In this document: positions 1-20,637 of the stretch, piece after piece
How the letters are laid out: each line of letters begins with the position of its first letter
Position numbering within the stretch: the stretch's first letter is position 1
NCBI RefSeq assembly: GCF_037198285.1
Contig: NZ_CP147243.1
Location: 1,642,422-1,666,421 of the forward strand
Reading direction: 5' to 3'
DNA: 24,000 bases
Origin: Haladaptatus sp. DJG-WS-42
GTDB taxonomy: Archaea > Halobacteriota > Halobacteria > Halobacteriales > Halococcaceae
The notes under the pieces: model-generated
What the model saw: the letters and a program-made list of their open reading frames with translations, nothing else
What the model was told of the DNA's origin: nothing
The model's database searches: none
Translations under genes and position numbers: made by a program

Positions 1-599
1 TTAAGCCGACGGAGCAACGCTTCTTTAATATTTCCTGCTTCCGAAGACGCTTCGACCCTGTCGATGAGATCAGAGAGGTCGTAGTACTTACCGTAATCTT
101 CCTCTGCCTGTTCGATAACCCGGGCAAGGAGGCCTGACTGCGCTTGCGTCTCATCAATGTCGAGGAGAAATAGCCAATCACCGACGTCCAGCTCTGAGGG
201 GTAAAGTTCGAACCCTTTGTGGAAATATTCCTTTGCTTCCTCGTACTTATCCTCCAATCCAGCTGGATAATAGACAGAGACTGGGTACGACTGGGGGGAT
301 AGCCCCCAATCATTCAAACTATCTGATTCAGGATTCTCGACCTGCAAACTCCAGTAGATACCCATTGCATCTACGATGATGCCAGAAAGGTTTCCTTTGG
401 CCGCCGCTGGAAGAGTCATTAGCTCCTCCATTAGAACCCCTAGCGTGTGCGACTTGCCAGTTCCTCGCTTGCCACAAATGGTGACCATATGAGGGTTGTT
501 GAGATCTAGATACACGTCCTCGGTGAGTTCTCCATTAGTGTCAAATCTCCGACCGAGATACGCAGCGAGTTCTTCCTTGTCACCACCGATGAGCGTCAT
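1..599 (-). CDS. HerA/DUF87-like P-loop ATPase, N-terminal part only (3' end lies beyond the window)
   Basis: Hand translation of the minus strand from the ATG at 599-597 gives MTLIGGDKEELAAYLGRRFDTNGELTEDVYLDLNNPHMVTICGKRGTGKSHTLGVLMEELMTL... It has Walker A GKRGTGKS in the context typical of HerA/DUF87 ATPases. I checked positions 1-120 and 450-599 codon by codon and found no in-frame stop; the middle was only read through quickly. The ATG overlaps the TGA of the upstream 1286-aa gene (ATGA at 596-599). The gene is absent from the ORF track because it has no stop in the window. Confidence 0.7.
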   Translation of the reverse strand, partial: MTLIGGDKEELAAYLGRRFDTNGELTEDVYLDLNNPHMVTICGKRGTGKSHTLGVLMEELMTLPAAAKGNLSGIIVDAMGIYWSLQVENPESDSLNDWGLSPQSYPVSVYYPAGLEDKYEEAKEYFHKGFELYPSELDVGDWLFLLDIDETQAQSGLLARVIEQAEEDYGKYYDLSDLIDRVEASSEAGNIKEALLRRL

Positions 600-3500
600 T
601 GATCTCCACCCTCCTGTGTCCATCGTCTTATCAACACGGCCTGCATCATTTCCGCTGTATCAGAGTTGATATCGAGCGCTCTGACTAACTGACGTACCTC
701 CTCTTTGTTATTTAGGTCCTTGACGGCATCATTTAGGCTTGTTCCGGCGACCATTACCTTATCCGGGGAGACAGAACCGCCCAAGTCATGGATGATCTCT
801 TCGAGATCATTCTCGTCGAAGGAGGCTTCTGCGAGCTTCTTTTCTGTGTCAATCCACTGACCCCAGAGACTGTTGTACTGCTTGGCATCAAATTCACCAA
901 GAGACTGGTCCAGCATCTCGGAACATTGGTTGAGGAAGCGTTTCCCCCGATCAAGAAGTGCTTTCTCCCCTTCTGGAATTTGTGGCTCGTACACCTTGAG
1001 CTGTTCTCTCGCACGTTCTATTTTCTCTTCTTCTGTTTCGACGGCACTTGTAAAGCGAGACTGGAGGTTCTCTGAGTCTCTATCCAACAATTCCTGGTGT
1101 TCGGATGAATCGTACTGTTCAACGTTTGGGACGATTTGCCGCCGAGTACGACTGAGGTCCTCGTACACCATGCTGGAGTTAATTTCATCATCAATGAATC
1201 GTTGGATGGTACTCTCGATATCAGCACCTACGATAGATTGGTTGACATCGTGGCTGGCAAGATGGTCCCCAATGCTATCGATACACGAAATCTCGATACC
1301 GCCTGACTCGATATCAACATTACCGTTTATTAGTAAATCCAGGGTTTCCTTGCCAGAGATTACTGAATCCTTTTGACTGACAATATCTTTTGCCTCCTCA
1401 AGCTGTGCTACTAGATGTTCGAGCGAATCGTGGATTAGGAATGGTAGCCCTGCTTCAAATTCGTTGAAGTCGCGTACAGCACTGATGTAGTCCGATACAT
1501 CTGTCTCTGCATACACATCGTACGACTGTATGGTCCGGATACGCTGTTTTAGATTATCGGAATCAGTCGTGAAATCGGTCTCAAGATCCTTCTCAAGTCT
1601 CTTGAGGTCAGCGACGTCATCAATGTCATCCAACTCACCATACTGTTGCTTCAGTGATTCAAGTTTTGTGAGACCCTCGTTGTCAACTCTCCCTTGGAGG
1701 AGAGCTTCCCGCTTGATAGCATCGTGGTATGAGCTTTTTACACTCTCACGAACCACCGTGACTTTACTATCAGGGAGAATAATTTTATCATCAGTGTCAC
1801 CACCCAGCACGAATGGGGCACCATGAAGGCTAACTACCGCCAAGATAAGATACAGATATGCTTTTGCGACGGGTGCTACTTTTGAGGTCCCGAAAACAGT
1901 TTTGACGATCTCGCTGAAGCTTAATTCATCATTCTCCGCCTCTTTGAGTTCCTCCTCGAGTTTGTTGATTACCTTACGGGTACCTTCGCTGAATTCGTCT
2001 GTGACTTCGTAGGAGTCTCCGTCCTTCTTGAGGAACTGCTCTGACTCGAACTCAGAGAACATCTGTCTAAGCTCATCACCAGACTTCTTACCTCGGTCAA
2101 CATTCGGAATATTATTCATCGTTTTTTGAATATCAAAATCAATGCCCTCGTAGAGCAATTTTCCCTTCTCTTGGAGGTTTTTTGTTGCATAGACAAAATC
2201 AAGGACATCTCCCCCAATATGTCCATTCGAGAATCCGAGAAGTTCAGTGACGTATTCTCCATTTCCGTACTGCCCTTTAGCGTTCCTGGTCACGTACCTC
2301 AACACCGAGAACATTCTCTCCGGCGATGTGAGCGCACCTACTTCATCAGGTATCTCTCTCCCGAGGATATCAAGAAGGGAAATGTTGAGGAAAACTCGAT
2401 ATCGCTTGAATTCATCTTCCCCGGGATAGATGTCGTTAATGTATGCTAGAAGTGTGCTGGTACTATTTTCACTATCGATATGTTCATCGATTTGTCTGTT
2501 CAAATCATCTTGAATATCGTCAGAGATGTTTGAAGCTCTATTATGGAGTTCACGGACAACGAATTCAGCCGGACGCTTGTCGTCTTCGCTGGGGCCAAGA
2601 TGGATCCCAAATTTGAGTGCATCAGACTGTTTGATAGCCTCCCACTCTTCCGGAGGTCCCGATGTGCCAACTGAAAGGTACACTTTTTCTGTGTACTGAG
2701 TATCTCCGAGAACATCTATTTCTAGATAATTTGACCTGGAGATGATTTCAGAGCCTCCTTCGAGTTGGGTCTCCAGAGCATCTTTCCAGAGGTCCAGAGT
2801 ACTTTTGATATCTGCCTCGAAATTTTCAATTGTATCCTCGACAAGTTTCGACGTTGGTTTTGTTGGGTCCGTAGTCGCGTTACCTGTGAGTATGTTTTGG
2901 TAGAGCACCAAGTATTCGCCATCACGGTCGATATATTCTGATTGGGATGCTGCCTGCCGAGTTAATTCCTTGACGCTGGTGGTGAGTTCGATTTCAGCAT
3001 CCTTCGCAAGCTGCTCGACTTGTGCAGGAGAGAACAGTGCAGGTTGGTCGTTCCGATTTAGAATTGCTTCACGGGCGATAGCAGTAAGAATCCGTTGGAG
3101 CGAACGTGAGTCTGAATAGTCTTCCTCTATCTGTTCTTGAATCGTTCGTTCCCCAGGCAATTGGCTCAGTTCTGCCCGCTTGATTTTCCCTAATCGGTTA
3201 CGAACTGAATCACCATGCTTGTACAGATACTCCCCATCAATACGACTCTCTCCGTCCCATTCTCGAAGGAACGCCATGAGAATCGTTTTAAAAGCTCGAA
3301 ACGAAAGGACCACGCGATTGTCTCCATCCCCTGCTTTCTGGGAATCGACGACAGAGAGAACAATCTCGAGGGCATCGGTAGTAAATGGATAGGCGTAATC
3401 TTCATCTCCGGACTCGGCATTGTCGAGCGTTTCGTGCCACTCCGGAACCTCGTCACGATAGTCGGTGAGTAATGGATACGTGTAGAGATGATATAGTTCG

Positions 3501-4456
3501 GAGAACAGATGCATTGTCTCCCCTTGCGCGAGGTTAATGCTATAATTCACGCTACCTCTTATTCGATCAACCGTGTCCTCGGGAGCTTGGATGGAATCTT
3601 CAAGCTCCTCCAAACCAACCGAGTTAATGAAGAGAATGTATGGGGGCGCTTCCAAATTGGCGTGCGAGTCCACTGTGCTTCTCATCATCTCCCGGATGAG
3701 TCCTTTTAGGTCGCTTTTTTCGTTTGGCCCAATGCCGCGGAATGTCTGTTCAAACTCGTCAATGTAGAACGCGGGATATTTCCCTTCAGCCTCGTAGTAT
3801 TCTTCGGCAAACCAAGTGACTGTATGATGGGCACCAGACGCTGAGAGAGACTTACAGGCACGAGAAATGTCATCTATTGACTCGGGTTCGTCGAAGAGTT
3901 GTTTGAGTTCGTCGGAGAGTTTTGGAGGCAGGTTATCGTATCTATCTAGCGACAGCGTAGATTTCTCATCGTCGAACCGGTCTAGGAGAACGCGTTCTGT
4001 CAGTTTCTCAGACTTGAGCACCGATTCGTATATAGCGAGAAGCAGTTCGTTAGGCGTGTTGTTATCCTGAAGGCTAATCTGGAAACAGTCGATTTCTGTC
4101 TCGCCATAGGTGAGTTGTGGGAACTCGACACCTCCTATTTCGGTAGGACCTAGGCAAAGGTCGGCGACACATTTCATAAGGACTGTTTTACCAGAGCCAT
4201 AAGCACCGTGTAGAAATACCCCGGGTGTTTCCGTGGTCTGTAAGCGATTGTGGATACTGTTCAAAATCTCTTGGCGGCGGGGAGTGAGTATAAAATCCGA
4301 CTCGTTCTCAACGAATGCCTCGAAGGTAGGGAGGTCGTTCTCATTGATAAGTTTCTGACACTCCTGTCGAACCCGACGGATTGTTTGCTGATCGAGAACC
4401 TGTACAACTTTATCTCGAACATCTTCGTATGACTTCTGCTGTTGTGTCGAACTCAT
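596..4456 (-). CDS. Large (1286 aa) acidic P-loop NTPase, BrxC/PglY-like by size and PglZ neighbourhood
   Basis: This is an uninterrupted 3.9-kb ORF in AT-rich DNA. It has N-terminal Walker A GVFLHGAYGSGKTVLMK and a candidate Walker B AFYIDEFE. It lies in the same operon as a PglZ-domain gene, and its start codon overlaps the stop of the 104-aa gene (ATGA at 4453-4456). The family assignment is contextual and was not verified by alignment. Confidence 0.6.
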   Translation of the reverse strand: MSSTQQQKSYEDVRDKVVQVLDQQTIRRVRQECQKLINENDLPTFEAFVENESDFILTPRRQEILNSIHNRLQTTETPGVFLHGAYGSGKTVLMKCVADLCLGPTEIGGVEFPQLTYGETEIDCFQISLQDNNTPNELLLAIYESVLKSEKLTERVLLDRFDDEKSTLSLDRYDNLPPKLSDELKQLFDEPESIDDISRACKSLSASGAHHTVTWFAEEYYEAEGKYPAFYIDEFEQTFRGIGPNEKSDLKGLIREMMRSTVDSHANLEAPPYILFINSVGLEELEDSIQAPEDTVDRIRGSVNYSINLAQGETMHLFSELYHLYTYPLLTDYRDEVPEWHETLDNAESGDEDYAYPFTTDALEIVLSVVDSQKAGDGDNRVVLSFRAFKTILMAFLREWDGESRIDGEYLYKHGDSVRNRLGKIKRAELSQLPGERTIQEQIEEDYSDSRSLQRILTAIAREAILNRNDQPALFSPAQVEQLAKDAEIELTTSVKELTRQAASQSEYIDRDGEYLVLYQNILTGNATTDPTKPTSKLVEDTIENFEADIKSTLDLWKDALETQLEGGSEIISRSNYLEIDVLGDTQYTEKVYLSVGTSGPPEEWEAIKQSDALKFGIHLGPSEDDKRPAEFVVRELHNRASNISDDIQDDLNRQIDEHIDSENSTSTLLAYINDIYPGEDEFKRYRVFLNISLLDILGREIPDEVGALTSPERMFSVLRYVTRNAKGQYGNGEYVTELLGFSNGHIGGDVLDFVYATKNLQEKGKLLYEGIDFDIQKTMNNIPNVDRGKKSGDELRQMFSEFESEQFLKKDGDSYEVTDEFSEGTRKVINKLEEELKEAENDELSFSEIVKTVFGTSKVAPVAKAYLYLILAVVSLHGAPFVLGGDTDDKIILPDSKVTVVRESVKSSYHDAIKREALLQGRVDNEGLTKLESLKQQYGELDDIDDVADLKRLEKDLETDFTTDSDNLKQRIRTIQSYDVYAETDVSDYISAVRDFNEFEAGLPFLIHDSLEHLVAQLEEAKDIVSQKDSVISGKETLDLLINGNVDIESGGIEISCIDSIGDHLASHDVNQSIVGADIESTIQRFIDDEINSSMVYEDLSRTRRQIVPNVEQYDSSEHQELLDRDSENLQSRFTSAVETEEEKIERAREQLKVYEPQIPEGEKALLDRGKRFLNQCSEMLDQSLGEFDAKQYNSLWGQWIDTEKKLAEASFDENDLEEIIHDLGGSVSPDKVMVAGTSLNDAVKDLNNKEEVRQLVRALDINSDTAEMMQAVLIRRWTQEGGDQ

Positions 4457-4767
4457 GGCTTGATATGATGGAATGTTAGTGCGTGGGACAGTTCGTCTGC
4501 TTTCTCAATTATGTAGATTCGTTCCCCTGAGACCCTATGTTCCTGAATCATGTTTGGATACATTGCGAGGACAATTCGTTTTCCGTCTCCATCGTCAGTC
4601 TCGCGTCTTTGAACACCCGTGGACCATTCTTCACCGAGGTACTGTTGGATATCTTGAATGAATTCTCGAAGTTCGTCGTAACTAGATCGGACGTCGTCGA
4701 TCGTGATAACGGCGATATTCTTTCCGGGCTGACCAATATACTCACGGATGTTAATAATCAAAGACAT
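4453..4767 (-). CDS. Hypothetical protein (104 aa), operon member
   Basis: The ORF fits exactly between its neighbours, with a 1-nt overlap (TAATG) at 4767 and a 4-nt overlap (ATGA) at 4453-4456. Its composition is acidic like the neighbours. I recognised no motif. Confidence 0.6.
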   Translation of the reverse strand: MSLIINIREYIGQPGKNIAVITIDDVRSSYDELREFIQDIQQYLGEEWSTGVQRRETDDGDGKRIVLAMYPNMIQEHRVSGERIYIIEKADELSHALTFHHIKP

Positions 4768-5534
4768 TAGGAAAGTAGTTGGATGTATTCCTTACCACCA
4801 CGACGGTACACTCGAACTTCATTGTCTGCTTCAAGAGCGGACACAACCTCTTCCAGCCGTGAGATATCCCACCCAAACGTCATTACCGCCTTGTCTTCTA
4901 ATGCGGAGTAAGACATCTCTGAGTCTTCTTCACGGATTATTTCCTTGATGAGTGTCCTATCGTCACCACGTAAATTAGTGTATATAGACGGGTTGATTTC
5001 ATACCCGTTATCAACCTTCTCTACAATGCCGAAAGATTGGAGTATACCTCCTATTGTCCCGGCAGTTACGGTGTTTCCTCCTTCCCCCTCCGTCATCAAC
5101 GTGTTAATTTCATCCGTTAGGGAGGAACCGAGGCCATATTTTCCCGAGTGTACCTTATCATCAAAGGCACCGATAGTGCGGTGGAAGTAAGTGAAATTGG
5201 TTCTTGACTTTCGCTCTAGCAATCGGAAGGCTTCTTGTTCAAATCTATCAGCATCCAGGAGTTGGCGACCTTCTTCGGTGAGTGATACAACTCCCTCATC
5301 GTCTCCATGGATGATTTCTATTGATGTGTTGTTGTCATCAAAGGCGAACTTTAGCCACTCGTCAACATCCTTGAATGGTTGAGATTCGCTTAGCTCATTC
5401 TCCTGTTCCATGAGCTCACGAAGCTCTGTTTTCGTGACCTTGTCCTTGTATCCCACCATCTCCACCAAGAGTCTAAGCCCTCGCAAGAACTCTTGACGTC
5501 CGATTCGTGGAATCGATTTATATGTCCTTGTCAT
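4767..5534 (-). CDS. Hypothetical protein (255 aa), possible C-terminal winged-helix domain
   Basis: The ORF overlaps the PglZ gene 3' end by 17 nt (5518-5534). Its C-terminus SYSALEDKAVMTFGWDISRLEEVVSALEADNEVRVYRRGGKEYIQLL resembles a wHTH. It has no catalytic motifs. Confidence 0.6.
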   Translation of the reverse strand: MTRTYKSIPRIGRQEFLRGLRLLVEMVGYKDKVTKTELRELMEQENELSESQPFKDVDEWLKFAFDDNNTSIEIIHGDDEGVVSLTEEGRQLLDADRFEQEAFRLLERKSRTNFTYFHRTIGAFDDKVHSGKYGLGSSLTDEINTLMTEGEGGNTVTAGTIGGILQSFGIVEKVDNGYEINPSIYTNLRGDDRTLIKEIIREEDSEMSYSALEDKAVMTFGWDISRLEEVVSALEADNEVRVYRRGGKEYIQLLS

Positions 5535-8271
5535 GGAATGTCAGTTTAGCAGATGTCATCTCACTGATTGAGGTACCACCGTGATAAGCATGTGCCTTTG
5601 GTACATTCTTAGACACATAACGAGATAACAGGCCGATAGTTGGGTTGTCAAAGATGCTATTGCCTGCTGGCAGATATGTATCATATCCAAACTGAAATAC
5701 GTCTATTGGAGCCGGTGCTGGTTGCCATGCGAACAGATACTTCGAACCGGACACAACAAATGGCTCAGACTGGATAGCTCTGAGTACCTCTGAATCAGAA
5801 GCCGATTCACAAGAGTCTGGTCCGAAATCCCGTGCTCGCTTGACGAGAGTCACATCGCTGAAGTCCCCAATCCCTAGGAGAATTGAATCCTCTCCATCAT
5901 CGAATCGGGCCTCTCCCAGGTTCAATTTATGTGCGTGCAATACATCCACTCTGTCACTCAAGCTACTCTGGGTGAACCTCTCCTGATTGCGTACATCCAA
6001 TACGAGATCTCTTTCTTGTCGGGTGATTTTTCCATGATCTCCCCCTATAACTAATTTCGGGGACTCATCGTGACTGTATTCTGAAATCAATTCCCCAACA
6101 GTCGAGACTAATTCGTCGAGGAAACTCCCTAATGATCGATAATAGTTCTCGAATTCGAACTCTGCCAAGTTTTTGTGCAATAGTGAATCGAAGTCTTCGA
6201 TATAGACTACGAAGGTATCGTTGAGTGCTTCAATCCGTTTTTCGAGATGTTCTGACGGAGCATCTGCATTTCCTGTGAGTAGTTCTTTCCGTTCTTTGAG
6301 GTGGGACTCTAGCTTATTCTCAATCTCTTCATTGATTTCTTCGAGGTTACCTTCTCTTTGGAAGTCTTCCGTCAGCTTAATATTAGCAACCTTTCGAGCG
6401 AAGCGAGTTATGCCAGAGTCGTTGAATTTATTGTTTTGAATTAATTTATAGGATAAATTCGATTCTTCGCCAATGAAATCAAGCTTGTCGAGACTAACCC
6501 TGTTTTTTAGATTAAGGGCCTGATCTTCATTTTTCACTGTCCAGTTGTAGATTCCTGTTCGTTCAGCTGGGAGCCCTGTTAGAATCGTCGCCATTGCTGA
6601 CGGAGTATAGGATGGTATATTCGAGTATAGTGGCTCGACATCAACAGATGGAGAATAGATATCCCACTGTTCCATCAGAGCGAAGTCCATGAACCCAAGA
6701 CTGTCAATGATGACAACTATTTGCAGATCCTCACTTTCGTCGTCAATAAGTTCAGAGATATGATTTCGGTCGGGATTGTCAACAAGACTGGGGTACTCCT
6801 CCACAAGGGCATCGGAGAGCTCGTCGTACTTATCTACCATCGCTTGATGGTACGCATCGGTCCCCGATTCGCCATCTATATTAGTTGTGATAAACTTGGC
6901 CCACTGACTGAAGAATTCTGGAGCAGTATCCAGTGAAGCGTCCATCTGCTGAATCCTGTCTGCCTCAGCTTCAGCTGCACGCCGATATTCCACTCTTCGA
7001 CGGGCCTCCGCAATGGCCGGAATAGAAGTAGACTCTAATCTGCTACCCTGACCACTTGCACGGGCCACTTCGTATAACTCCTCCAATGGGGAAACCCAAT
7101 CCTTGGAATGGAACTCTTCTTCGATAATTGGTGAGCTACTGATGAGTTGTACCTCACTGACACACTCCAGGATAGAATCCACCTGATTGAATGCTTCTTC
7201 TCGCCCTGTAGGCGGTCGATCTCCAATTCGATCCGCTTCCATTACCAACTTATCACGCACAGAAAGTAGAAGCGATCTGATTTCTTCCTTGGAGGCATCT
7301 TGGTATAACAGCCCGAAATATTGTATAAGTGCATCAGCAGCGTCCTCCGGACTCCGCTGGTTGATTCGCTTTTCGGAGTCGAATAGACTCTGATAACCTC
7401 TTTGAACCTGTTCGATGAACTCTCGCCCCCCGTGACCTGCTAGCTCAAGTAACTCGTTGTTGAACAGACGGCCTTTGAGAAGTCTCTCGCGAGCAAGATC
7501 TCGGAACAGTGTCTTAACCTCACCATCTAATGCTCTCCATCGTGTTACAAACTGCCCAGTCTCGTCACCGTACTCGGTGCCATAACGTCGACATATTCCA
7601 TACTCGTATACCTGCCTCTGTGCCTTCTCGGGAAGGTTCTCAAATCGTTCTACTGACCGGACGTCAAGCACGTCCAGATAGAACTCACGGAATTCATCTC
7701 TCTCGTCGCTAAATGATTGATATGAAACGTACATATCCCATGTGTCACCGATCTCTGTCGTCTCGAATACGGAGAGACTAGGGATATTGTCCAGCGCATG
7801 ATTCAAATACGCTTGAAGAAGGAAATCCGGCAACCGAGTGGGGAGATGTTGGACATGATCTCCAGTCAGTTTTTTGTAAACTTGTCTTCTAACATGGTTA
7901 GGATCGTCTATTTCGAAACTCTCCGGCTGAAAAAAGCGTGTTCCACGGCAAGAGTCTATTTTTTGCACAAGTGGTGATGGACAGAAGAAAACAACATTCC
8001 CAGAACCGTCTTTTTTTATGATGAACTCCACGGCAGCAAAGATCGTCTCTTGTAGTTCCTTTACATTAGACGGCATCGGTAATGCGCGTGTAGTATCCAA
8101 GTCGCCGATTAATACGTTGAGTGCTCGCTTACTCTCTGGGATAGGATAATTGGTTGGAATATAGTTGATACCTCCAGACTTTTCCTGAAGTCTCTCTTTG
8201 GTGTTCTCCAAACCATCCAGAGGTTCAAAGGAGAACCATTCCTCAATAGTTTTTGATAACTCGTGAATCAT
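5518..8271 (-). CDS. pglZ: PglZ-domain (alkaline-phosphatase superfamily) protein, 917 aa
   Basis: Three PglZ-type motifs are present: the metal-binding Asp context VVIIDSLGFMDF, the nucleophile loop SNIPSYTPSAMATILTGLPAERTG, and the C-terminal AYHGGTSISEM (HGG-S-x-x-E). It is the first gene of a five-gene overlapping operon. Confidence 0.8.
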   Translation of the reverse strand: MIHELSKTIEEWFSFEPLDGLENTKERLQEKSGGINYIPTNYPIPESKRALNVLIGDLDTTRALPMPSNVKELQETIFAAVEFIIKKDGSGNVVFFCPSPLVQKIDSCRGTRFFQPESFEIDDPNHVRRQVYKKLTGDHVQHLPTRLPDFLLQAYLNHALDNIPSLSVFETTEIGDTWDMYVSYQSFSDERDEFREFYLDVLDVRSVERFENLPEKAQRQVYEYGICRRYGTEYGDETGQFVTRWRALDGEVKTLFRDLARERLLKGRLFNNELLELAGHGGREFIEQVQRGYQSLFDSEKRINQRSPEDAADALIQYFGLLYQDASKEEIRSLLLSVRDKLVMEADRIGDRPPTGREEAFNQVDSILECVSEVQLISSSPIIEEEFHSKDWVSPLEELYEVARASGQGSRLESTSIPAIAEARRRVEYRRAAEAEADRIQQMDASLDTAPEFFSQWAKFITTNIDGESGTDAYHQAMVDKYDELSDALVEEYPSLVDNPDRNHISELIDDESEDLQIVVIIDSLGFMDFALMEQWDIYSPSVDVEPLYSNIPSYTPSAMATILTGLPAERTGIYNWTVKNEDQALNLKNRVSLDKLDFIGEESNLSYKLIQNNKFNDSGITRFARKVANIKLTEDFQREGNLEEINEEIENKLESHLKERKELLTGNADAPSEHLEKRIEALNDTFVVYIEDFDSLLHKNLAEFEFENYYRSLGSFLDELVSTVGELISEYSHDESPKLVIGGDHGKITRQERDLVLDVRNQERFTQSSLSDRVDVLHAHKLNLGEARFDDGEDSILLGIGDFSDVTLVKRARDFGPDSCESASDSEVLRAIQSEPFVVSGSKYLFAWQPAPAPIDVFQFGYDTYLPAGNSIFDNPTIGLLSRYVSKNVPKAHAYHGGTSISEMTSAKLTFHDKDI

Positions 8272-8719: not shown

Positions 8720-10768
8720 ATGCGAGGCTTCCGAGTAAATCACCGAGGTGAAGACGGGTATGGGCGCCGAGGCCAACTCCACGTTCGGAGAGGACCTGTA
8801 GAGACACCCGCACTCTTCCCCGTGATAAACCTCATCGGAGGCAGCACCCTTGCGTCAGGTAGCGGATGGCGACATTTTAGAGATAACATCCTCCACACCG
8901 AAGAACTCCAAGGAACGATGTTTCAGGCTATGAGTTTCTTGGACTATGGTGTCACGGCCAACACACTTCGTCGGTGGCGGCAGCGCACATTTGAGGAGCA
9001 TCTTCAAAACTGGGATGAGTGGGATAAATCTAAACATATCAATTCTCCCATTTTTATCGACTCGGGTGGCTACCGCCTGATGAATTCGGATACGTTCGGT
9101 GAAGCGCCTACAGAGGGTGGTGCTGAGAATGAATGGGGAATTTATACCAATCCGGATAGTGTCCTGAAATTGCAAGTAGATTTTGGCGGGGACATTTTTG
9201 CGACATTAGACTACCCTATTCCCCCAGATCTTAAAGAAGATGAGCAAGATGAGCGGATGGAACGCAGCATTGAGAGCGCTGTTCGTTGTTTAAAACTAAT
9301 AGATGACCCTGACAAGATCGAAATTCTGGAAGATGGGGATGAGAAAACCGTTGAGCGCTTGAAAAATAGAAAAGCAGCTGACGAAGAACCAGCCGTCTTT
9401 GTCGCGATCCATGGCCACGATCATGAGACGATTCATTGGTATGTTTCTGAGTTCTTAGAACGAGCAAAAGAAGAGGGAGTAAGTGACCAGTTCCACGGCT
9501 TTGCTATCGGCTCGTTGGTTCCGCTACGTTCGAAGATTGATGTTCTAGTCGATATCGTCCAGGGTGCCACCGAAGCGATCGGAGACCGAGACGATATCGC
9601 ACTTCACGTATTCGGTATTGGAGGCAAGCAGGCATCCCTATTGTCATTACTTGGGGTTGACACATTTGATTGCTCCAGCCATATGCAATCTGCTCGCTTC
9701 AAAAAATACCTCGTACCGGAAACGTGGGACAACGTAAAACTCAAAGATATTGACAACTATCTGACTAGTGGTGGATGGCCCTGTAACGTACCAGAATGCC
9801 CGTTGTGTAGTAATTCGACAGAATTGATCCCAGATGAGTTCATGAGTTATGTCGATTCTGAGGATGGGATATCTCCTCAGAAATTTAAGGAACTGATATA
9901 CAGAGAAGCGACGTATGGTCAAGATGGGTTCACAAAGGGATGGCTGTACGGCTTGCTTGCCCGTCACAACTTTTCGGTATATAATCGAGAGATGCAGCGT
10001 GTGCGGAACGCAATTGATGAGAATTGGTTGCTCGACTATGTCATTCAGTGGGCTCGCAAAGACGATCAAATTGAGCGTGGACTAAAGCGAGCTCAACTTA
10101 GGAATCCAGAACTTGAAGCAGAGCTGAAATCACGCGAGGCATATGACCTACTTTTAGGCTCTGAAATTGCAACCGACCAAGTGAAACTCTCTGAGTTCGG
10201 TGCCGATTTCCCTGAGGTGGAATCTAACCGGATCTCGCTGAAACATACTCCACGAGATTTCAATATTGCGAACAAGGACTACGATCCACATCGTGACGAT
10301 AGTTCTAATAAAGACATTCTACTGATTATTCCATGTAGCCAGCGAAAGCCCTACTCTGAATCTCGTACACACAAAGCTGTGCTCAACAGACTGGAGCCAG
10401 TGAGAGATCGAATCCATAAAGTTACAATCTCTGGTATGTATGGCCCAGTTCCAGAGACAGAGGAAACAGCAGACGCTGTGCTGGAATACGAATATGTTCT
10501 GGCCAAACAAGATACAGAACAAATTGAACTCGTGACAGAACGCCTGGTTGATTACCTGCGAACTCACGGTGATTCATTCGACACCATTGTCAGCTATGCT
10601 GTGAGTAAGCAGTACCGGCAAGTCATCGAGAAAGCGTTCAGTGAATACGGACGAGGAAGTGTATTCCCAACGGATCCTGAAATGTTAGGATTCAAACAGC
10701 ATTACAAGCGAGAGAATATACGTGAGTTACAAGAATTCCTAAGCGTTCCTGAGCAAGAATTGATTTAA
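8720..10768 (+). CDS. TGT-fold (tRNA-guanine transglycosylase superfamily) enzyme fused to an ArcS-type C-terminal domain, 682 aa
   Basis: The N-terminus is typical of TGTs (RRGPVETPALFPVINL). TGT catalytic-type motifs are IFIDSGGYRL, HGFAIGSLVP and HVFGIGGKQASLLSLLGVDTFDCSS, plus a Cys cluster CNVPECPLC. The C-terminal domain carries PCSQRKPYSESRTH (10331-10372). This matches exactly the PC-X3-KPY-X2-S-X2-H signature reported for archaeosine synthase ArcS. Confidence 0.8.
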   Translation: MRGFRVNHRGEDGYGRRGQLHVRRGPVETPALFPVINLIGGSTLASGSGWRHFRDNILHTEELQGTMFQAMSFLDYGVTANTLRRWRQRTFEEHLQNWDEWDKSKHINSPIFIDSGGYRLMNSDTFGEAPTEGGAENEWGIYTNPDSVLKLQVDFGGDIFATLDYPIPPDLKEDEQDERMERSIESAVRCLKLIDDPDKIEILEDGDEKTVERLKNRKAADEEPAVFVAIHGHDHETIHWYVSEFLERAKEEGVSDQFHGFAIGSLVPLRSKIDVLVDIVQGATEAIGDRDDIALHVFGIGGKQASLLSLLGVDTFDCSSHMQSARFKKYLVPETWDNVKLKDIDNYLTSGGWPCNVPECPLCSNSTELIPDEFMSYVDSEDGISPQKFKELIYREATYGQDGFTKGWLYGLLARHNFSVYNREMQRVRNAIDENWLLDYVIQWARKDDQIERGLKRAQLRNPELEAELKSREAYDLLLGSEIATDQVKLSEFGADFPEVESNRISLKHTPRDFNIANKDYDPHRDDSSNKDILLIIPCSQRKPYSESRTHKAVLNRLEPVRDRIHKVTISGMYGPVPETEETADAVLEYEYVLAKQDTEQIELVTERLVDYLRTHGDSFDTIVSYAVSKQYRQVIEKAFSEYGRGSVFPTDPEMLGFKQHYKRENIRELQEFLSVPEQELI

Positions 10769-10842: not shown

Positions 10843-11286
10843 ATGTCGACTCTGCTGGTTCAGTCCTGCTCTAAATCAAAGAATTCACCAGGGAGAGCGG
10901 TTCCTGCGATGGAATTGTATTCTGGATATTACTACAAAATTATCAAAAAAGCGAGAAGAGAAGGGGATCTTAGATCGGATATTGACATCTGTATCCTCTC
11001 CGCAAAATATGGACTAATTGATGCAAACGCAGAGATTACAGAGTACGATCAGAAGATGAATCGGGTGCAGGCTCTCGATTTGCAGGAGGATGTCGAAACA
11101 ACCCTAATCAAGAAATTGAAAGAGAATAATTATAAAAAAGTCGTCATTAATGCAGGTGAAGATTATCGAGTTGCACTTAAAAGATTCATTCAGAATTCTG
11201 ATATTGAAGTCGAGGTATTACACGGTCAGCTCGGAGAACGTGGAAGCGTTCTGAAAAAGATGATTCGTGAATCACAGAACACATAA
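10843..11286 (+). CDS. Small stand-alone paralog of the ArcS-type C-domain (DUF6884/DUF5591-like), 147 aa
   Basis: The motif order is shared with residues about 535-650 of the upstream protein: LLVQSCSKSK vs LLIIPCSQRK, ILSAKYGLI vs ISGMYGPV, and ITEYDQKM vs VLEYEYVL. It lacks the KPY..S..H part of the signature. The domain-family name is from memory and was not searched. Confidence 0.55.
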   Translation: MSTLLVQSCSKSKNSPGRAVPAMELYSGYYYKIIKKARREGDLRSDIDICILSAKYGLIDANAEITEYDQKMNRVQALDLQEDVETTLIKKLKENNYKKVVINAGEDYRVALKRFIQNSDIEVEVLHGQLGERGSVLKKMIRESQNT

Positions 11287-11289: not shown

Positions 11290-12537
11290 ATGCCAGATTT
11301 AACTCAACGCAGCAAGTATGCTGACTTTTCCATAACGTCGACTGCTGGAGAAGCACGCACTGGAGAGTTAGTAGTAGGTGAGAAAAAATTTGAAACACCC
11401 ATGCTCTTCCCTGTCATCAATTTCTATGGTGGTGGGAGAAAAGGGAGCCTATTTGGAGGAAGCACCCACAGAACAGTAAAAGAGCTTATTAATGGGGATG
11501 ACTGCGTCGGCGGCGTTTCTTGCAGCGAATATTTCCCGGGCTCTATGCTTTCAGTTGGGTCGCTAACTGACTATGGAATCAGCGAATCTTTACTGAAGAC
11601 GTATCTGGAGAAACCAATTAGCGAAAGACCGGAATTCTCTGGATTTGAGGGATTGTTATTCGTCGACTCTGGTGGGTTCAAAAATCTCTCACAAGGCGGT
11701 TTAGACGGCTCTGATTTTCAGATGGAACTCAACCAACACCGCGTGTTCGACATGCAACGTCAGCTTGGTGGTGACATCCTCGTCAACCTCGACCTCCCGA
11801 TTACCGAGGATGACACGTATGAAGAACGCATCGAGAAAGCAAAAACAACAGCAGAAAATGCAGTTGAATTTGCTCGGCACACTCAATCATACCCATGTGC
11901 TGCGTATCTTTCTGTCCATGGCTATGATTATTCGATGATCGATACCTTCTTTGAGCAAGTCGAATCCGTGTTTGGTTCTCTCGATTTGACTGAGATATTT
12001 GATGGAATTGCCTTGGGAAGCCTTGTACCAAAAAAGGACAACAAGTCTACTCTCATCGAAGCGATTTCTGGTTGTAAGCAGGTGATGGCTGAACGAGGCT
12101 TTGAGAATCATCCATTACACGTGCTAGGGATCTCCGGGAAATCGATGCCACTGTTAGTTGGGCTGGGCGTAGATAGCTTTGATTCGTCATCCTACATTCA
12201 AGCCGCGATCAATGGAAAATACTACACGTCTTTCTTGGAGACTGAACGCGTTGATGACGTTGATTTGACTAAGTGCGACTGCCCAGTCTGCTCTTCACCC
12301 CTTCTTCGGGAACGGATGAAAGGGAACGCCGAGTATCGAAAGGACCAGATGGGCCCTGTTGCTGTCCATAATATGATTATCCAGCAAAAGGAGTTGTCGA
12401 GAATGCGCAAACTGATTCAGAGCGGTCCGGAAGCCTTCGTGGATTATCTTGGAAACGAACTCGGACGTCACCGGTCAGTCGGACGATATGCCCACGATGT
12501 TGTTAACAAATCATTCGGAGGATACGATGGAATATAA
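11290..12537 (+). CDS. Compact TGT/DpdA-like transglycosylase, 415 aa
   Basis: The N-terminus is ARTGELVVGEKKFETPMLFPVINF. Motifs LFVDSGGFKN, DGIALGSLVP and HVLGISGKSMPLLVGLGVDSFDSSS are present. It has a canonical zinc site CDCPVCS-X-H: Cys codons at 12274, 12280 and 12289, and His at 12367, giving exactly 25 intervening residues as in bacterial TGT C318/C320/C323/H349. It has no PUA or other C-terminal tRNA-binding extension. It starts 3 nt after the previous stop. Confidence 0.8.
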   Translation: MPDLTQRSKYADFSITSTAGEARTGELVVGEKKFETPMLFPVINFYGGGRKGSLFGGSTHRTVKELINGDDCVGGVSCSEYFPGSMLSVGSLTDYGISESLLKTYLEKPISERPEFSGFEGLLFVDSGGFKNLSQGGLDGSDFQMELNQHRVFDMQRQLGGDILVNLDLPITEDDTYEERIEKAKTTAENAVEFARHTQSYPCAAYLSVHGYDYSMIDTFFEQVESVFGSLDLTEIFDGIALGSLVPKKDNKSTLIEAISGCKQVMAERGFENHPLHVLGISGKSMPLLVGLGVDSFDSSSYIQAAINGKYYTSFLETERVDDVDLTKCDCPVCSSPLLRERMKGNAEYRKDQMGPVAVHNMIIQQKELSRMRKLIQSGPEAFVDYLGNELGRHRSVGRYAHDVVNKSFGGYDGI

Positions 12538-14095
12538 ACCAAAAGTCAACGAAATCAACGAATTCCTGGAAATTGCAAGCGACTTTGAGGATCCGTTAGA
12601 ACTAATCAGAGAGTCACTATCCAACTCTTACGATGCCGGTGCAACTGATGTGTTAATCCGGATTCGAACTGGAGCAACTGGATCTGACATTACTATCGAA
12701 GATGATGGCGAAGGCATGAGTCAGCGAGACTTGGAGTCTTTCTTCGACTTAGGTAACTCCAGAAAGACAGATGGGATCGGGTACAAAGGCCACGGGACCA
12801 AAATATTCTACAAAAGCGATGGAATTAAAGTAAATACTAGCAAGAACAAAAAAACGCTTCATGCGGAGATGGAGCAACCTTGGGAGAAGCTCAATAACCG
12901 TGAGTTACCAACCTATTCGGTCACTGAACACGATGCCCCAGCGGAGCGGTCTGGAACACAAATAAAGATTCAAGGGTTCAAGTCTGGGGAAGGGTTTAGC
13001 CCTGAATCACTCACCTACAACAAAATCCACAACTATCTGAAGTGGAAGACGATTGCGGGCTCAACTGGTCACTTCTTCGAAGACGATTCACGAGAAATGA
13101 ACATCACCGTCGATCTCGATTCTGGGATCGATGACACAATGGATGAGCTTCAAACGACGAATCACTTTGAGTTCCCCCGTGAGCAATTGCGCCCTGGCAC
13201 AGGTGACTTCCCAGAGGAGCGAATGTGCAAGCACTATGGCCCAATAGAGCTCGAAGTTCCCTTCGATGGTGGTCATACTACATTAGAGATCGTCGGAATG
13301 GTTGGCGGGAAGGCGGCTCGAAATGAGTTGCCAACATACGGTCGACACTCAACGCAGTTCGGTATCTGGCTTGCAAAAGATCATATCAAAATTGAGCGGC
13401 TCAACGAAGCGATCTCTCACGATAACGAATTCATTCATTTCTTATTCGTTGCAAATTGCCAAGATATCGAACTCTCAGCGAACCGAGGGAAGATTCGAAA
13501 TAAGGCGAGCAAAGTTTACCAGACAATAGAAGAAGAGCTCAACCATTACCTCTCAAAAGTTGCTCGCGACCCATGGTTCAAGGAGTATCTGGAAATTCGA
13601 AAGCGAGCCAGCATTTCTCGACAGGCGCAGACGCATTCAGAATCGGTTTCTCAGAGAAAGGAACGGATTCACTCTCGTAATTCATTTGAGCCCACAAACG
13701 TGGCTGAGGTCCTTTTAGGACTCCAGCATTCGAACCGCTTTGAATCAAACAACACGGTTACGATCGAAGACTACCAGCCAGCAGAAGAGGTTGAGGCAAT
13801 CGTTCGTATTGGAGATGACCTCTTGGGTTCCTCACTGCAACAAGCGGTCGTGGATTTCTTCGACTCTGGAACTCCCCTGGGCTCTACTGAACAAATCATC
13901 GCATGGGAACTCGGGGACCTTGATAAGTTGCGTGAGATTGAACGAAAAGGTTACTTAGACGCTGAAATTGAATGTGACTTCGACAAGCCTGAAGTTCGAT
14001 ATATGCGCAACGGAAAAACCGAGCACATCGATATCCTGCTCGTTAAACCTCGGTTCCACAGAACAGATCAATTGGCCCAGACACTGGCTGAATGA
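12527..14095 (+). CDS. GHKL (HATPase_c / MORC-like) ATPase
   Basis: Bergerat-fold motifs are present: N-box RESLSNSYDAGA, G1 IEDDGEGM and G2 GYKGHGTK. I prefer the ATG at 12527 (MEYKPKVNEINEF). It overlaps the upstream gene by 11 nt. The ORF-track start at 12449 would overlap by 89 nt. Confidence 0.8.
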   Translation: MEYKPKVNEINEFLEIASDFEDPLELIRESLSNSYDAGATDVLIRIRTGATGSDITIEDDGEGMSQRDLESFFDLGNSRKTDGIGYKGHGTKIFYKSDGIKVNTSKNKKTLHAEMEQPWEKLNNRELPTYSVTEHDAPAERSGTQIKIQGFKSGEGFSPESLTYNKIHNYLKWKTIAGSTGHFFEDDSREMNITVDLDSGIDDTMDELQTTNHFEFPREQLRPGTGDFPEERMCKHYGPIELEVPFDGGHTTLEIVGMVGGKAARNELPTYGRHSTQFGIWLAKDHIKIERLNEAISHDNEFIHFLFVANCQDIELSANRGKIRNKASKVYQTIEEELNHYLSKVARDPWFKEYLEIRKRASISRQAQTHSESVSQRKERIHSRNSFEPTNVAEVLLGLQHSNRFESNNTVTIEDYQPAEEVEAIVRIGDDLLGSSLQQAVVDFFDSGTPLGSTEQIIAWELGDLDKLREIERKGYLDAEIECDFDKPEVRYMRNGKTEHIDILLVKPRFHRTDQLAQTLAE

Positions 14096-14097: not shown

Positions 14098-15252
14098 CTA
14101 TAATCGCTTAACCCACGGATTATTTTCAGGCTCAAACTCACTCTTTTTCCCCGAATAGGAAGCTGTACTATCATCTAGGATACCTAAGTGGACCAATTGG
14201 CGAGTGAAATTAAATAAGATATTTGACCGAACTAAAGATCTCCACGTGTCTGTATTGTATATCTCTTCTCTCTGATCGTTTCTCAATAATTCCCTCGCAG
14301 TCTCCGTATTGGTCACAAATAGGTTCAGAAATACGTTCGGATACTGTTCGACTACTGTTCGAAGAAGTTCAGTGAAGACGAATTCACGGTTCTGCTGATT
14401 CACAGCCTCTACAAATTGTCTGAAATCTGGGTGCCGCTGATATGCGGTTCGCAGTAGTACTGCTAAGGAAGGAATTTCGTCGATTAAAGGACTATAGTTG
14501 ATGTCCTGCTTTTTTGATGCTAGGTCGTCCAGCGTTTCAATCCCTTCGCCACGGAGAGTACTCTTTGCAAGTTTTCCATGCTCTGAAAGAGAGAAGGTAC
14601 TTTCTCCATCTTTGGAAAGGAACCCACACAAGCTCGCTCCCTTGATAGTATATTTCGCAGTGGACTGGGCAACACCATATTTTTGAATAATTTCGGATTC
14701 AAGTTTGGACCGGCTTGTTAATTCAGAGATTGCCAGTACCGGTGCATATGCATTCAATGGCTGTGTCAAATACAGAGTTGAGACAACAGAGCTACTCCCA
14801 GGATGAGAGAATTGATACTTGACCCGCGACTGAACGTCAGATACCTGAGCCGCGTCTATCTCAGTAGCTGGCTCGTTCCATGAAACTGCCCCTGTGCTCG
14901 TTGTCGAGATTGTCCCTGCGCCATGGCTCAGCAGCACGTCCTCTACTCTTTTTAGATCACTGTGAGGAGCGGCGAGATAGCTCAAATGGGACCCACGTTG
15001 GTACGTTAGAGTTTGGCCGACTCCTTTGAGGAGGTCCTTGCTTCCCTTAACCTCTATTGCAAATACTTGACCTCGACCAGTTTGCCCAATGATATCTGGG
15101 TACCGGCCATCAATCGTTATTGAGTGCGGATTCGCCCGTTTCAGAACGTTACTGTATGTGTTGTAGTGGCTGCCTGGAACATGCACAAGGAAATCCCAAC
15201 CACGAGTAGAAAGTTCGTCTACAACCGTTTCAAAAACATCCGATTCCTCCAT
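14098..15252 (-). CDS. Putative PD-(D/E)xK nuclease-fold protein with a long C-terminal extension, 384 aa
   Basis: The N-terminal region has E13, then YPD53IIG followed by VFAIE67VK69G. The spacing and hydrophobic context are typical of the restriction-endonuclease-like fold. The C-terminal approximately 250 aa are unassigned. The stop codon lies 2 bp from the GHKL gene stop. Confidence 0.55.
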   Translation of the reverse strand: MEESDVFETVVDELSTRGWDFLVHVPGSHYNTYSNVLKRANPHSITIDGRYPDIIGQTGRGQVFAIEVKGSKDLLKGVGQTLTYQRGSHLSYLAAPHSDLKRVEDVLLSHGAGTISTTSTGAVSWNEPATEIDAAQVSDVQSRVKYQFSHPGSSSVVSTLYLTQPLNAYAPVLAISELTSRSKLESEIIQKYGVAQSTAKYTIKGASLCGFLSKDGESTFSLSEHGKLAKSTLRGEGIETLDDLASKKQDINYSPLIDEIPSLAVLLRTAYQRHPDFRQFVEAVNQQNREFVFTELLRTVVEQYPNVFLNLFVTNTETARELLRNDQREEIYNTDTWRSLVRSNILFNFTRQLVHLGILDDSTASYSGKKSEFEPENNPWVKRL

Positions 15253-15430: not shown

Positions 15431-16438
15431 TCAGATGTTGTCGAGAAATCCCCTCCGTTGTTCCATCTTATCGCGCTCTCCTCGCTGATCGTAATGCTTC
15501 TCAATCACGTCTGGACTCACATTCGCCCGGTCGCTGACCACGCGCTCTGGTACATCTTCGGACAGCCAGTACGTAATCGCGCCGCGCCGCACGTGTGGTG
15601 AGCGGCTTGATGGACACCGAGACACTGAATTACGATTCGTCGCCTCACACGTCTCGACGTCTCTGTCGTGCGGACATCCATCGGTGTAGAAGCACGGACG
15701 GGTCACCTCGTAGATGATGTGTTGAATGGTACTGTGGTGGAGTCGCCCTTGCTTCGATGCCAGCAGTGGCTCTCGTCCGGCATCGTCGGTTACGTCGGGA
15801 CGCTGGTCGGCCAGCCAGTCATCCAGCAACTCACACATCTCGTCCGAAAGCGCGACGTAACGCTCCCCTGACTCCTGGTTGTTCAGGGGAATTCCCGTGT
15901 CCTTCCGGTGGACAGTCTGGATGTACTGCTCCTCCGAGTCGTAGTCGTGAACGTCGAGTGCGTACATCGCCCCGCGGCGCATCGCTGTCCGCCACGCAAG
16001 TGTCAGGATGACGTGCCGGACCGAGGCGTATCGGTACATCTCAAGATACGTGAGTACTTGCTCGGCTCGCTCGGCGTCGAGCATCTCGGTTCGCACGGCG
16101 TCGCTCGCCGAGAGGATTGGCAGTTGGACCTTCGTGTGGAGGTCGGGGTCGACTGCATCGATGGATTCGAGGAACTTGATAAACACGCGGATGGTGACCA
16201 TCTGGGTCTTCTCGGAGACTTTGGACAGATCTCCGTCGTTTCTCCGCCAGATGCGGTACTCGTAGAGCGTCCGTCCGGTGAGATTGTTCAGGTTCTCGAT
16301 GTTCTGGTCGTGACACCATCCAACGAAGTACCGAAGTCGGGAGCGGTGTGACTGCAGGGTCTGGACGGCGACTTCGTTCCGGCGATGGTCGAGATACAGT
16401 TCGAGTGCGCGCTCGGGTGCGATTGGTTCGAGTGTCAT
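15431..16438 (-). CDS. Tyrosine recombinase / phage-type integrase (XerC/D-like), 335 aa
   Basis: It has an N-terminal SAM-like core-binding region (LELYLDHRRNEVAVQTLQSHRSRLRYF). The catalytic motifs are AWRTAMRRGAMYALDVHD (Arg), SPHVRRGAITYW (H-x-x-R) and VIEKHY (Tyr). It is GC-rich, unlike the adjacent island. Confidence 0.9.
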   Translation of the reverse strand: MTLEPIAPERALELYLDHRRNEVAVQTLQSHRSRLRYFVGWCHDQNIENLNNLTGRTLYEYRIWRRNDGDLSKVSEKTQMVTIRVFIKFLESIDAVDPDLHTKVQLPILSASDAVRTEMLDAERAEQVLTYLEMYRYASVRHVILTLAWRTAMRRGAMYALDVHDYDSEEQYIQTVHRKDTGIPLNNQESGERYVALSDEMCELLDDWLADQRPDVTDDAGREPLLASKQGRLHHSTIQHIIYEVTRPCFYTDGCPHDRDVETCEATNRNSVSRCPSSRSPHVRRGAITYWLSEDVPERVVSDRANVSPDVIEKHYDQRGERDKMEQRRGFLDNI

Positions 16439-20388: not shown

Positions 20389-20637
20389 CTACTCGATGGC
20401 GCGTTTTGCACCGTCCGAGTCCCCATCCCCACCACCACGAATCTGTTCGTCCCACTCCTCGAACATGCCGTAGTCGGTCATCGCTTCCATCCCCGCGAGC
20501 GCCGCAGAGAGTTTGATGCCGACGAGCGGCACGTCGGCTACCGAGAGCACGAGGTCTGCTTGCACGACGGCTCCCTCGCGGAGAATCACGTCGACAAAAT
20601 CCACGATTGCGTCCTCCTCTCCGTTGCTCGGTTTCAT
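20389..20637 (-). CDS. gvpM: Gas vesicle protein GvpM (GvpA/J/M family)
   Basis: MKPSNGEEDAIVDFVDVILREGAVVQADLVLSVADVPLVGIKLSAALAGMEAM shows the GvpA-family core. It is the last gene of the operon. The ATG at 20637 overlaps the gvpL stop (ATGA). Confidence 0.8.
   Translation of the reverse strand: MKPSNGEEDAIVDFVDVILREGAVVQADLVLSVADVPLVGIKLSAALAGMEAMTDYGMFEEWDEQIRGGGDGDSDGAKRAIE

Follow-up and report, generated by a model that had tools for sequence, protein, structure and literature searches.

Gene organization and start of the fusion gene

In the 24,000-nucleotide stretch of Haladaptatus sp. DJG-WS-42 analysed here (contig NZ_CP147243.1, positions 1,642,422 to 1,666,421; referred to as the window), an open reading frame (ORF) at 8720-10768 on the forward strand codes for a fusion of a tRNA-guanine transglycosylase (TGT) with a DUF5591 domain. 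The ORF is a single uninterrupted frame of 682 codons. The resulting 682-residue protein consists of a barrel (residues ~1-400), a helical linker and a C-terminal domain of the ArcS-C1 type. Three genes are packed tightly downstream on the same strand and encode a DUF6884 protein, a second TGT of 415 residues and a GHKL ATPase. The four genes are treated below as a cassette and evaluated as a candidate system for placing 7-deazaguanine bases in cellular DNA.

The public record of the fusion comprises 648 residues, which is 34 fewer than the ORF. Since residues 1-34 (8720-8821, forward strand) are conserved among the homologs, including G15, R16, G18, T29, P30 and P34, the ATG at 8720 is the better start. 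For the comparison with relatives a set of 45 related loci plus the window was used (33 haloarchaeal and 13 bacterial), and neighbouring genes were considered within 10 kb.

The DUF5591 domain and comparison with ArcS

Bases 10331-10372 (forward strand) encode PCSQRKPYSESRTH, corresponding to residues 538-551, in frame with the ORF. The original prediction, which was made from the letters of the window, had recognised at this site the complete signature of archaeosine synthase (ArcS), PC-X3-KPY-X2-S-X2-H. This was confirmed by translation, by a regular-expression search and by the homolog alignment. The pattern gave one match in the six-frame translation of the window, with a chance expectation of 8.7e-6 as computed from the window's own amino-acid composition. 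The P, C, K, P, Y and S of the motif are kept in 46 of 46 family members, archaeal and bacterial, while the terminal H is replaced by Q in four of them (L005, L006, L015 and L044).

Pfam assigned residues 529-649 (10304-10666, forward strand) to DUF5591, the ArcS C1 or ArcS2-type domain, with an E value of 2.1e-15, and Foldseek agreed with this assignment. With phmmer, residues 531-657 were aligned to the solved DUF5591 protein AF0587 (PDB 2q07) at E = 1.8e-5 with the motif in register, and the family profile matched the same structure at E = 1.1e-9. A fortuitous match in a different fold, a risk that the original prediction had raised, was discounted by this alignment. As judged from sequence, the motif sits in a true DUF5591 (ArcS C1) domain, by homology and not as a look-alike.

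When the C-terminal domain was searched against 1.84 billion representative proteins, 211 matches were obtained and the top ~80 belonged mostly to the TGT-DUF5591 fusion family. Genuine ArcS proteins appeared only at E values of 1e-9 to 1e-5, with the domain in the middle of the protein. The two NCBIfam equivalog models for ArcS, NF040592 and NF053620, have cut-offs of 440 and 600 bits. Seven of ten ArcS reference proteins passed one of these cut-offs, at 443-801 bits; the fusion reached 82 bits (cut-off 440) and 45 bits (cut-off 600), and it scored far under the equivalog cut-offs of both ArcS and arcTGT. No PUA domain was matched on the fusion, which stops ~30 residues past DUF5591 and leaves the PUA region of ArcS unmatched in the alignment. 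By these family criteria, the fusion is not a canonical ArcS.

The two proteins share a TGT-derived N-terminal domain joined to a DUF5591 (C1) domain that bears PC-X3-KPY-X2-S-X2-H, together with a zinc site and an Asp equivalent to D317 of the fusion (PMC11298593, PMC5699537). Canonical ArcS differs in lacking the Asp residues of DSGG and LDYP, in carrying C2 and PUA domains, in its tRNA substrate and, in Euryarchaeota, in its complex with RaSEA, which proceeds via a lysine adduct of 7-cyano-7-deazaguanine (preQ0-Lys).

The transglycosylase barrel

Pfam recognised the TGT family on the fusion with an E value of 1.9e-29. The codons for the catalytic and zinc-binding residues lie at 9059-9967 (forward strand), namely D114 (9059-9061), D164 (9209-9211), D317 (9668-9670), C355/C360/C363 (9782-9808) and H416 (9965-9967). 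D114, D164, D317 and the Cys-His site align with D95, D130, D249 and the C279/C281/C284/H307 region of ArcTGT. D114 is found in the sequence DSGG, D164 in LDYP (the substrate- or base-binding Asp) and D317 in DTFDCS. Seven positions, D114, D164, D314, D317, C355, C360 and H416, were invariant in 20 aligned homologs. DSGG was present in 46 of 46 members and a simple GxDxFD pattern was matched by 42 of 46.

In the AF2 model of the fusion (pLDDT 77), the TGT barrel is followed by a helical linker and by an α/β C-terminal domain that is modelled with confidence. Among solved structures, the top Foldseek matches of this model were bacterial TGT and ArcTGT (1iq8). The fusion combines the features that characterise DpdA-type enzymes, that is, a TGT barrel with the catalytic Asp pair, the base-binding Asp and a zinc site but no PUA domain, and the same holds for the 415-residue TGT.

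The original prediction had pointed out that the N-terminal domain keeps both Asp motifs (D114 and D317), and this proved correct, with D164 and the zinc ligands retained as well. Its contrast with canonical ArcS was essentially right, as the fusion has a complete catalytic transglycosylase domain and ArcS does not. In seven genuine ArcS proteins confirmed with NCBIfam, the Asp residues of DSGG and LDYP (equivalent to D114 and D164) are lost and C2/PUA domains are added; the D317 equivalent is kept there together with the zinc ligands.

The other genes of the cassette

The second gene of the cassette (10843-11286, forward strand) encodes a 147-residue protein with the motifs SCSKSK and LSAKYG. 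Pfam assigned it to DUF6884 (1.8e-16), with weak matches to YaaA (1.5e-5) and DUF5591 (4.5e-3). PADLOC assigned it to PDC-M57A (1.8e-15) and, weakly, to DpdC (1.2e-6, covering only profile positions 48-101 of 319). DpdC, the enzyme that converts preQ0-DNA into dADG-DNA (PMC10164549), contains a DUF6884 domain (PMC12235509). A comparison of the DUF6884 family with the family of the fusion C-terminal domain by hhalign gave E = 2.4e-5, pairing PCSxxKPY with SCSxSK and SGxYGPVP with LSAxxGL, so that the active-site motifs are in register and the motif of the fusion aligns with the C-x3-K motif of DUF6884. The 147-residue protein also matched the viral family phrog_5935, whose function is not known, at 3e-18.

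The gene of the 415-residue, DpdA-like TGT (11290-12537, forward strand; Pfam TGT 3.3e-24) begins 3 nt past the stop codon of the DUF6884 gene. Its product aligned with ArcTGT 1iq8 at 5e-20, with D95, D130, D249 and the CxCxxC...H site all aligned, and the DSGG, FD and zinc motifs were invariant across 29 orthologs. This enzyme is the closest paralog of the fusion (BLASTP 6e-38, 27% identity). Since the C-terminal domain of the fusion and DUF6884 are related families and the TGTs match each other, the operon encodes one paralogous pair of nitrile-handling domains and another of TGTs.

The fourth gene (12488-14095, forward strand) overlaps the end of the TGT gene and codes for a GHKL (HATPase_c_3) ATPase of ~520-535 residues, its start being uncertain among the ATG codons at 12488, 12497 and 12527. 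The Pfam match to HATPase_c_3 was 2.1e-12. Its NCBIfam matches were confined to the GHKL domain of BbrUII/HgiDII enzymes and of MutL, and a match to phrog_6203, a viral family whose function is not known, was found at 1.4e-14. The ATPase is strictly co-conserved with the DUF6884 and TGT genes. According to PADLOC, no protein of the window matches DpdB, whose place in the operon is occupied by the GHKL ATPase, and no DpdD-K restriction genes are present in the window.

These three co-conserved genes, including the DpdC-like DUF6884 gene, were left out of the module outlined in the original prediction, which in this respect was incomplete. The original prediction was right that a radical-SAM gene, folE, queD, queE and queC are all missing from the window.

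Distribution of the family and the division of labour between the two TGTs

The TGT-DUF5591 family consists of proteins of 600-700 residues. At least 120 clusters with the same architecture and 47-86% identity were found in Halobacteria, and full-length relatives at ~32% identity occur in cyanobacteria, Chloroflexota and Poribacteria. All four cassette genes were found together in 29 of the 33 haloarchaeal loci, with varying gene order. In the bacteria the fusion stands without the rest of the cassette (13 of 13 loci). Copies of the cassette also reside on haloarchaeal plasmids, where they are annotated as 'tRNA-guanine transglycosylase', 'DUF6884 domain-containing protein' and 'ATP-binding protein'.

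The co-occurrence of two TGTs bears on which of them would exchange the base. It is conceivable that the TGT domain of the fusion is a scaffold that binds a flipped base, the 415-residue TGT being the sole inserter and the fusion only converting preQ0 already present in DNA. Canonical ArcS is itself a TGT paralog that does not carry out base exchange (PMC5699537), and the two TGT genes occur together in the 29 complete haloarchaeal loci and on both plasmids that carry either of them. We nevertheless regard this as distinctly unlikely, given that D114, D164, D317 and the zinc ligands are invariant in the 46 members, whereas real ArcS lost D114 and D164. Furthermore, the fusion was found without another TGT gene within 10 kb in the 13 bacterial and in 4 haloarchaeal loci. 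Because the fusion occurs without a second TGT in these loci, one chain probably both inserts and elaborates the base, as the original prediction had proposed.

Three further observations were made on the relatives. The plasmid of Haladaptatus sp. YSMS36 (L047, 12001-25928) carries two convergent copies of the fusion, a 1493-residue AAA protein and the DUF6884/TGT/GHKL trio. Plasmid pHsi139 of Haloarcula sinaiiensis (L046, 3593-12085) encodes a third, smaller TGT type of 344 residues, with QueE, QueD, an EVE-domain protein, a PD-(D/E)XK nuclease and a 'BREX system ATP-binding' protein as neighbours; similar TGTs are present on eight other haloarchaeal plasmids, and the locus looks like another uncharacterised DpdA-like system. 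In six cyanobacterial loci (L033 12098-13811, L034, L035, L040, L042 and L043) the fusion is directly followed by GmrSD_N (DUF262) and then by a HEPN protein of the MAE_28990 type, a combination that may represent a different pair of effectors or a ParB-like substitute for DpdB.

Neighbouring que and defence genes

The genes queC (Pfam 1e-70), queE and queD adjoin the cassette in 11 of the 29 loci, and folE is present as well in three. The original prediction had concluded that preQ0 must be drawn from the host; for the island in the window a supply from the host is still presumed, but this does not extend to those 11 loci, which carry their own queC/queE/queD. A ~160-residue protein without a Pfam match (cluster c12) recurs in 8 haloarchaeal loci (L002 3285-3767 and seven others), close to either the cassette or the que genes.

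The adjacency of QueC genes in 11 loci may also be seen in the light of type IV CBASS, a defence system whose TGT-family enzyme has been adapted to a base conjugated to protein (bioRxiv 10.1101/2025.04.06.647259). By analogy with Cap9/Cap10, the TGT paralogs would handle a protein-linked 7-deazaguanine and regulate the GHKL ATPase or another effector. This is highly improbable. No CD-NTase was found, the neighbouring QueC comes with QueD and QueE (and with FolE in 3 loci) and so constitutes a preQ0 pathway, two nitrile-converting domains are sensible only with preQ0, and the DpdJ/K-like partners belong to the DNA-marking Dpd system.

A DpdJ-like helicase (PADLOC 2.4e-44) was detected in 12 loci and a DpdK-like PLD protein (3.8e-11) in 9. 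In the bacterial loci L032 and L045 the DpdJ/K-like genes directly follow the fusion, on the same strand in L032. Further loci have a second large DEAD helicase and ATPase set by the cassette. When the gene set c8/c16/c13/c10/c9 was compared with the PglZ/ATPase set of the window for homology, the only matches were non-significant.

The island and its divergent operon

Upstream of the cassette lies a divergent operon of five genes (3-8271, reverse strand). It encodes a PglZ-type phosphodiesterase (5518-8271), two proteins of 255 and 104 residues, an AAA ATPase of 1286 residues (596-4456) and a HerA-like ATPase (3-623) that is cut by the edge of the window. The PglZ-type protein matched Phosphodiest at 4.6e-8 and PglZ weakly at 1.2e-3, the 1286-residue ATPase matched AAA_16 weakly at 6e-5, and the HerA-like ATPase matched DUF87/HerA at 8.5e-12. 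No significant Pfam match was obtained for the 104- and 255-residue proteins, and neither a GNAT nor a STAND NTPase turned up in the window. The PglZ/HerA set adjoins the cassette in L015 and L044 as well as in the window and is partly present in L006; 25 of the 29 cassette loci are without it. The operon is a probable restriction or capture partner of the cassette.

Whether the cassette has a partner at all is the point on which another explanation differs. It could be an orphan protective modification that deazaguanylates the island, a plasmid or the host DNA against foreign nucleases, the defence genes being merely co-located. Plasmid copies exist, the partner sets differ by locus (DpdJ/K-like, DEAD-helicase/ATPase or PglZ/HerA), and phage 7-deazaguanines shield DNA from restriction (PMC6884629). 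In addition, 8 of the 29 cassette loci have no recurrent helicase, ATPase or PglZ set within 10 kb. We give this explanation a small but real chance, as a recurrent partner set is directly adjacent to the cassette in the other 21 of 29 loci, the DpdJ/K-like genes directly follow the fusion in the two bacterial loci named above, and the PglZ/HerA set recurs by the cassette in three genera.

Downstream of the cassette, a 384-residue protein (14098-15252, reverse strand) has a YPD...IEVKG motif followed by winged-helix-like domains. This facultative neighbour adjoins the fusion or the cassette in 11 loci, and its PD...E-x-K-type motif, YPD...[VI]E[VA]KG, is conserved in 10 of 11 members. No significant fold match was found for its AF2 model (pLDDT 86) with Foldseek, the best being 3dnx at E = 0.011, followed by winged helix-turn-helix regulators. 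It is a possible nuclease or DNA binder, the nuclease role being suggested by the PD...E-x-K motif alone. Its status as a firm member of the system was dropped since a 43%-identical homolog is found in a housekeeping context.

A tyrosine recombinase (15431-16438, reverse strand; Pfam Phage_integrase with a SAM-like N-terminal domain) marks the right edge of a low-GC island. The GC content is 44-48% up to ~15 kb and 58-64% from 19 kb, and the recombinase sits at the rise. The left edge lies beyond the window. No tRNA genes were found anywhere in the window, and the island edge has no tRNA marker. On its right side the island is flanked by ordinary chromosomal DNA that contains TrmB, pirin and gas-vesicle genes. 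The gas-vesicle cluster in this high-GC host flank (20634-23703, reverse strand) contains two GvpL/GvpF genes, GvpK and a GvpA-family gene.

Proposed function

From the observed domain homologies, residue conservation, gene co-conservation and neighbourhoods, we infer that the cassette is a cellular variant of Dpd-type 7-deazaguanine DNA modification; this inference also covers the DNA substrate, the use of preQ0, the nature of the product, the function of the ATPase and the link to restriction. The fusion probably exchanges guanine in DNA for a 7-deazaguanine, converts the inserted base in place and thereby marks the host genome as self for the neighbouring defence genes.

In the proposed mechanism, the TGT barrel, with D317 as nucleophile, D114 and the base-binding D164, would excise guanine from double-stranded DNA and insert preQ0. 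The latter would be supplied by the host archaeosine pathway in the case of this island and by the adjacent que genes in many relatives. The Cys539/Lys543 pair of DUF5591 would then attack the nitrile of the inserted base, and an amine would resolve the adduct to an amidine. The likeliest product of this step would be 2'-deoxyarchaeosine (dG+), formed with no need for RaSEA. The DUF6884 protein could hydrate the nitrile to the amide, giving dADG, and the second TGT may be another inserter or form a heterodimer with the fusion. The GHKL ATPase would take the ATP-dependent role that DpdB has for DpdA, in line with the finding that the ATPase activity of DpdB is required for DpdA (PMC10164549). 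The mark would label resident DNA as self, and unmarked DNA would be the target of the PglZ/HerA/AAA operon in the window or, in relatives, of the DpdJ/DpdK-like helicase-nuclease pairs. Considering the co-conserved DUF6884, second TGT and GHKL genes, the product range likely includes dADG besides dG+, and dG+ and/or dADG are the predicted products of the cassette.

The original prediction had made dG+ dependent on a host RaSEA acting in trans, and this did not hold in general. No RaSEA-like radical-SAM gene was found in the 45 related loci, bacterial ones included, and among the recurrent neighbour gene families of these loci the CX3CX2C motif was carried by QueE alone. To our knowledge, archaeosine and RaSEA are archaeal, and bacteria have neither RaSEA nor archaeosine in their tRNA; a host RaSEA in trans would therefore be no general solution. 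A requirement for RaSEA is unlikely because the enzyme is never co-encoded, because some hosts are bacteria that presumably lack it, and because there are precedents in phage nt-1 and Methanocaldococcus jannaschii. The DpdA2 and ArcS2 proteins of Vibrio phage nt-1 yield dG+ in Escherichia coli plasmid DNA without RaSEA (PMC10516641), and M. jannaschii ArcS makes archaeosine (G+) directly (PMC11298593).

Alternatively, DUF5591 could put an amino acid or another amine, e.g. lysine as in the case of T. kodakarensis ArcS, on preQ0 in DNA, and the stable preQ0-amine amidine adduct would itself be the self-mark of the genome. The absence of a co-encoded RaSEA, even in bacterial hosts, which as far as we know lack this enzyme, is what suggests such an end product. 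The original prediction had raised an amino-acid-conjugated 7-deazaguanine of this kind; it remains speculation, and we consider it unlikely. If true, and together with dADG from the DUF6884 protein, it would mean two chemically distinct 7-deazaguanine marks made by two TGT/nitrile-converter pairs. No report of a cellular dG+-type mark or of an amino-acid-conjugated deazaguanine in DNA was found in the searchable literature.

Several observations weigh against the proposed function. By sequence, both TGT domains are most closely related to tRNA enzymes (ArcTGT 3.4e-19). The fusion matched neither the bacterial DpdA (bDpdA) model NF041059, which has a cut-off of 200 bits, nor the PADLOC DpdA model, and the 415-residue TGT reached only 30 bits on NF041059. 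Both TGTs are nearer in sequence to arcTGT than to any described DpdA. DUF6610 (DpdA4) was matched by neither TGT in Pfam, and PHROGs gave zero matches for either. The exchange of H for Q at the end of the motif in four members may mean that the catalytic role ascribed here to the motif differs among them. Viral sequence relatives were found neither in viral contigs (searched with the family alignment), nor in 50,697 phage records (tblastn with the C-terminal domain), nor in PHROGs. The GHKL protein could be an effector or a sensor and not a DpdB analogue. Eight cassette loci are without a recurrent partner set. Lastly, euryarchaeal ArcS transfers lysine, and ArcS of T. kodakarensis is inactive without RaSEA (PMC11298593); for this reason the amine donor is not predictable.

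The kinship with tRNA enzymes also raises the question of an accessory archaeosine pathway for tRNA or other RNA in place of a DNA system. In structure as well as in sequence, ArcTGT and ArcS-family proteins are matched best, and haloarchaea do make archaeosine in tRNA (PMC5699537). Nonetheless, the PUA, C2 and C3 tRNA-binding domains are missing, the distribution is patchy and island- or plasmid-borne, and helicases, PLD nucleases and PglZ/HerA genes lie nearby. Bacterial members exist, and we know of no archaeosine in bacterial tRNA. The partner protein, moreover, has a DpdC-type domain, and DpdC acts on DNA (PMC10164549). An RNA pathway is therefore judged very unlikely.

Comparison with known systems

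The proposed function as a DNA modification system can be set beside three described systems. Of the analogues whose chemistry has been tested, the nt-1 pair is the closest. It likewise consists of a DNA transglycosylase of the TGT fold and a DUF5591 core that lacks PUA and bears the same type of motif (PMC10516641, PMC6884629), and the fusion would in effect unite DpdA and ArcS2 in a single chain. When the fusion model was compared with viral models by Foldseek, a 464-residue TGT-fold protein of nt-1, presumably DpdA2, was matched at E = 4e-8 and the nt-1 DUF5591 protein R9TEI9 at E = 2e-4 (TM 0.52); a phage YaaA and a halovirus DUF6884 protein were matched as well. The nt-1 pair consists of two viral proteins, whereas the window family has one polypeptide and is cellular (haloarchaeal chromosome or plasmid, and some bacteria). 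The fusion of the window is, in addition, accompanied by the second TGT, the DUF6884 protein and the GHKL ATPase. The nt-1 pair serves anti-restriction, while self-marking for defence is presumed for the window family.

In the bacterial Dpd system, preQ0 is inserted in host DNA by a TGT paralog that an ATPase assists, and the nitrile is converted by a DUF6884 protein (PMC10164549, PMC12235509). The logic proposed for the cassette is the same, and in its relatives que genes and DpdJ/DpdK-like helicase/PLD genes stand alongside. The Dpd system has DpdB, a ParB/DndB-like protein, where the window cassette has the GHKL ATPase. The cassette also differs in its two TGT paralogs, which are nearer to arcTGT than to bDpdA, in its short DUF6884 protein (147 residues, compared with ~310-320 positions in DpdC profiles), and in its partner genes, which are PglZ/HerA and not DpdD-K. 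The extra ArcS-type domain of the window predicts an amidine product that is not known from Dpd.

The third system is BRC (BREX-related capture), whose gene set comprises PglZ, a BrxC-like ATPase, DUF4007 (BrxA-like), a STAND NTPase (BrxB-like) and HerA/FtsK, some members also having GNAT and TGT (PMC12839542). The divergent operon of the window resembles it, with a putative PglZ protein, a large putative AAA ATPase and a HerA-like ATPase encoded beside TGT genes, and haloarchaea are among the BRC hosts (PMC12839542). The TGT of BRC has been proposed as a self-marking enzyme; no DpdB or DpdC homologs were reported, and the modification was suggested to stop at dPreQ0 (PMC12839542). The TGT module of the window, in contrast, has nitrile-converting DUF5591 and DUF6884 domains and a GHKL ATPase.

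Significance

No description of the TGT-DUF5591 fusion or of the four-gene cassette was found in the searchable literature, with prior mention elsewhere possible, and no archaeal chromosomal system marking DNA with 7-deazaguanine was found there either. The current gene name, 'tRNA-guanine transglycosylase', is probably wrong. So far, the cellular 7-deazaguanine marks are dPreQ0 and dADG from bacterial Dpd only, and dG+ in DNA is viral only. To this picture the family would add an inserter and a converter fused in one protein and a GHKL ATPase replacing DpdB. The family further docks onto three or more distinct restriction-type modules, the BRC-like PglZ/HerA set included. Through this family, archaeosine-type bases in archaeal genomes, ArcS-type domains that act without RaSEA and the self signal of methyltransferase-less BREX-related systems would become open to testing.

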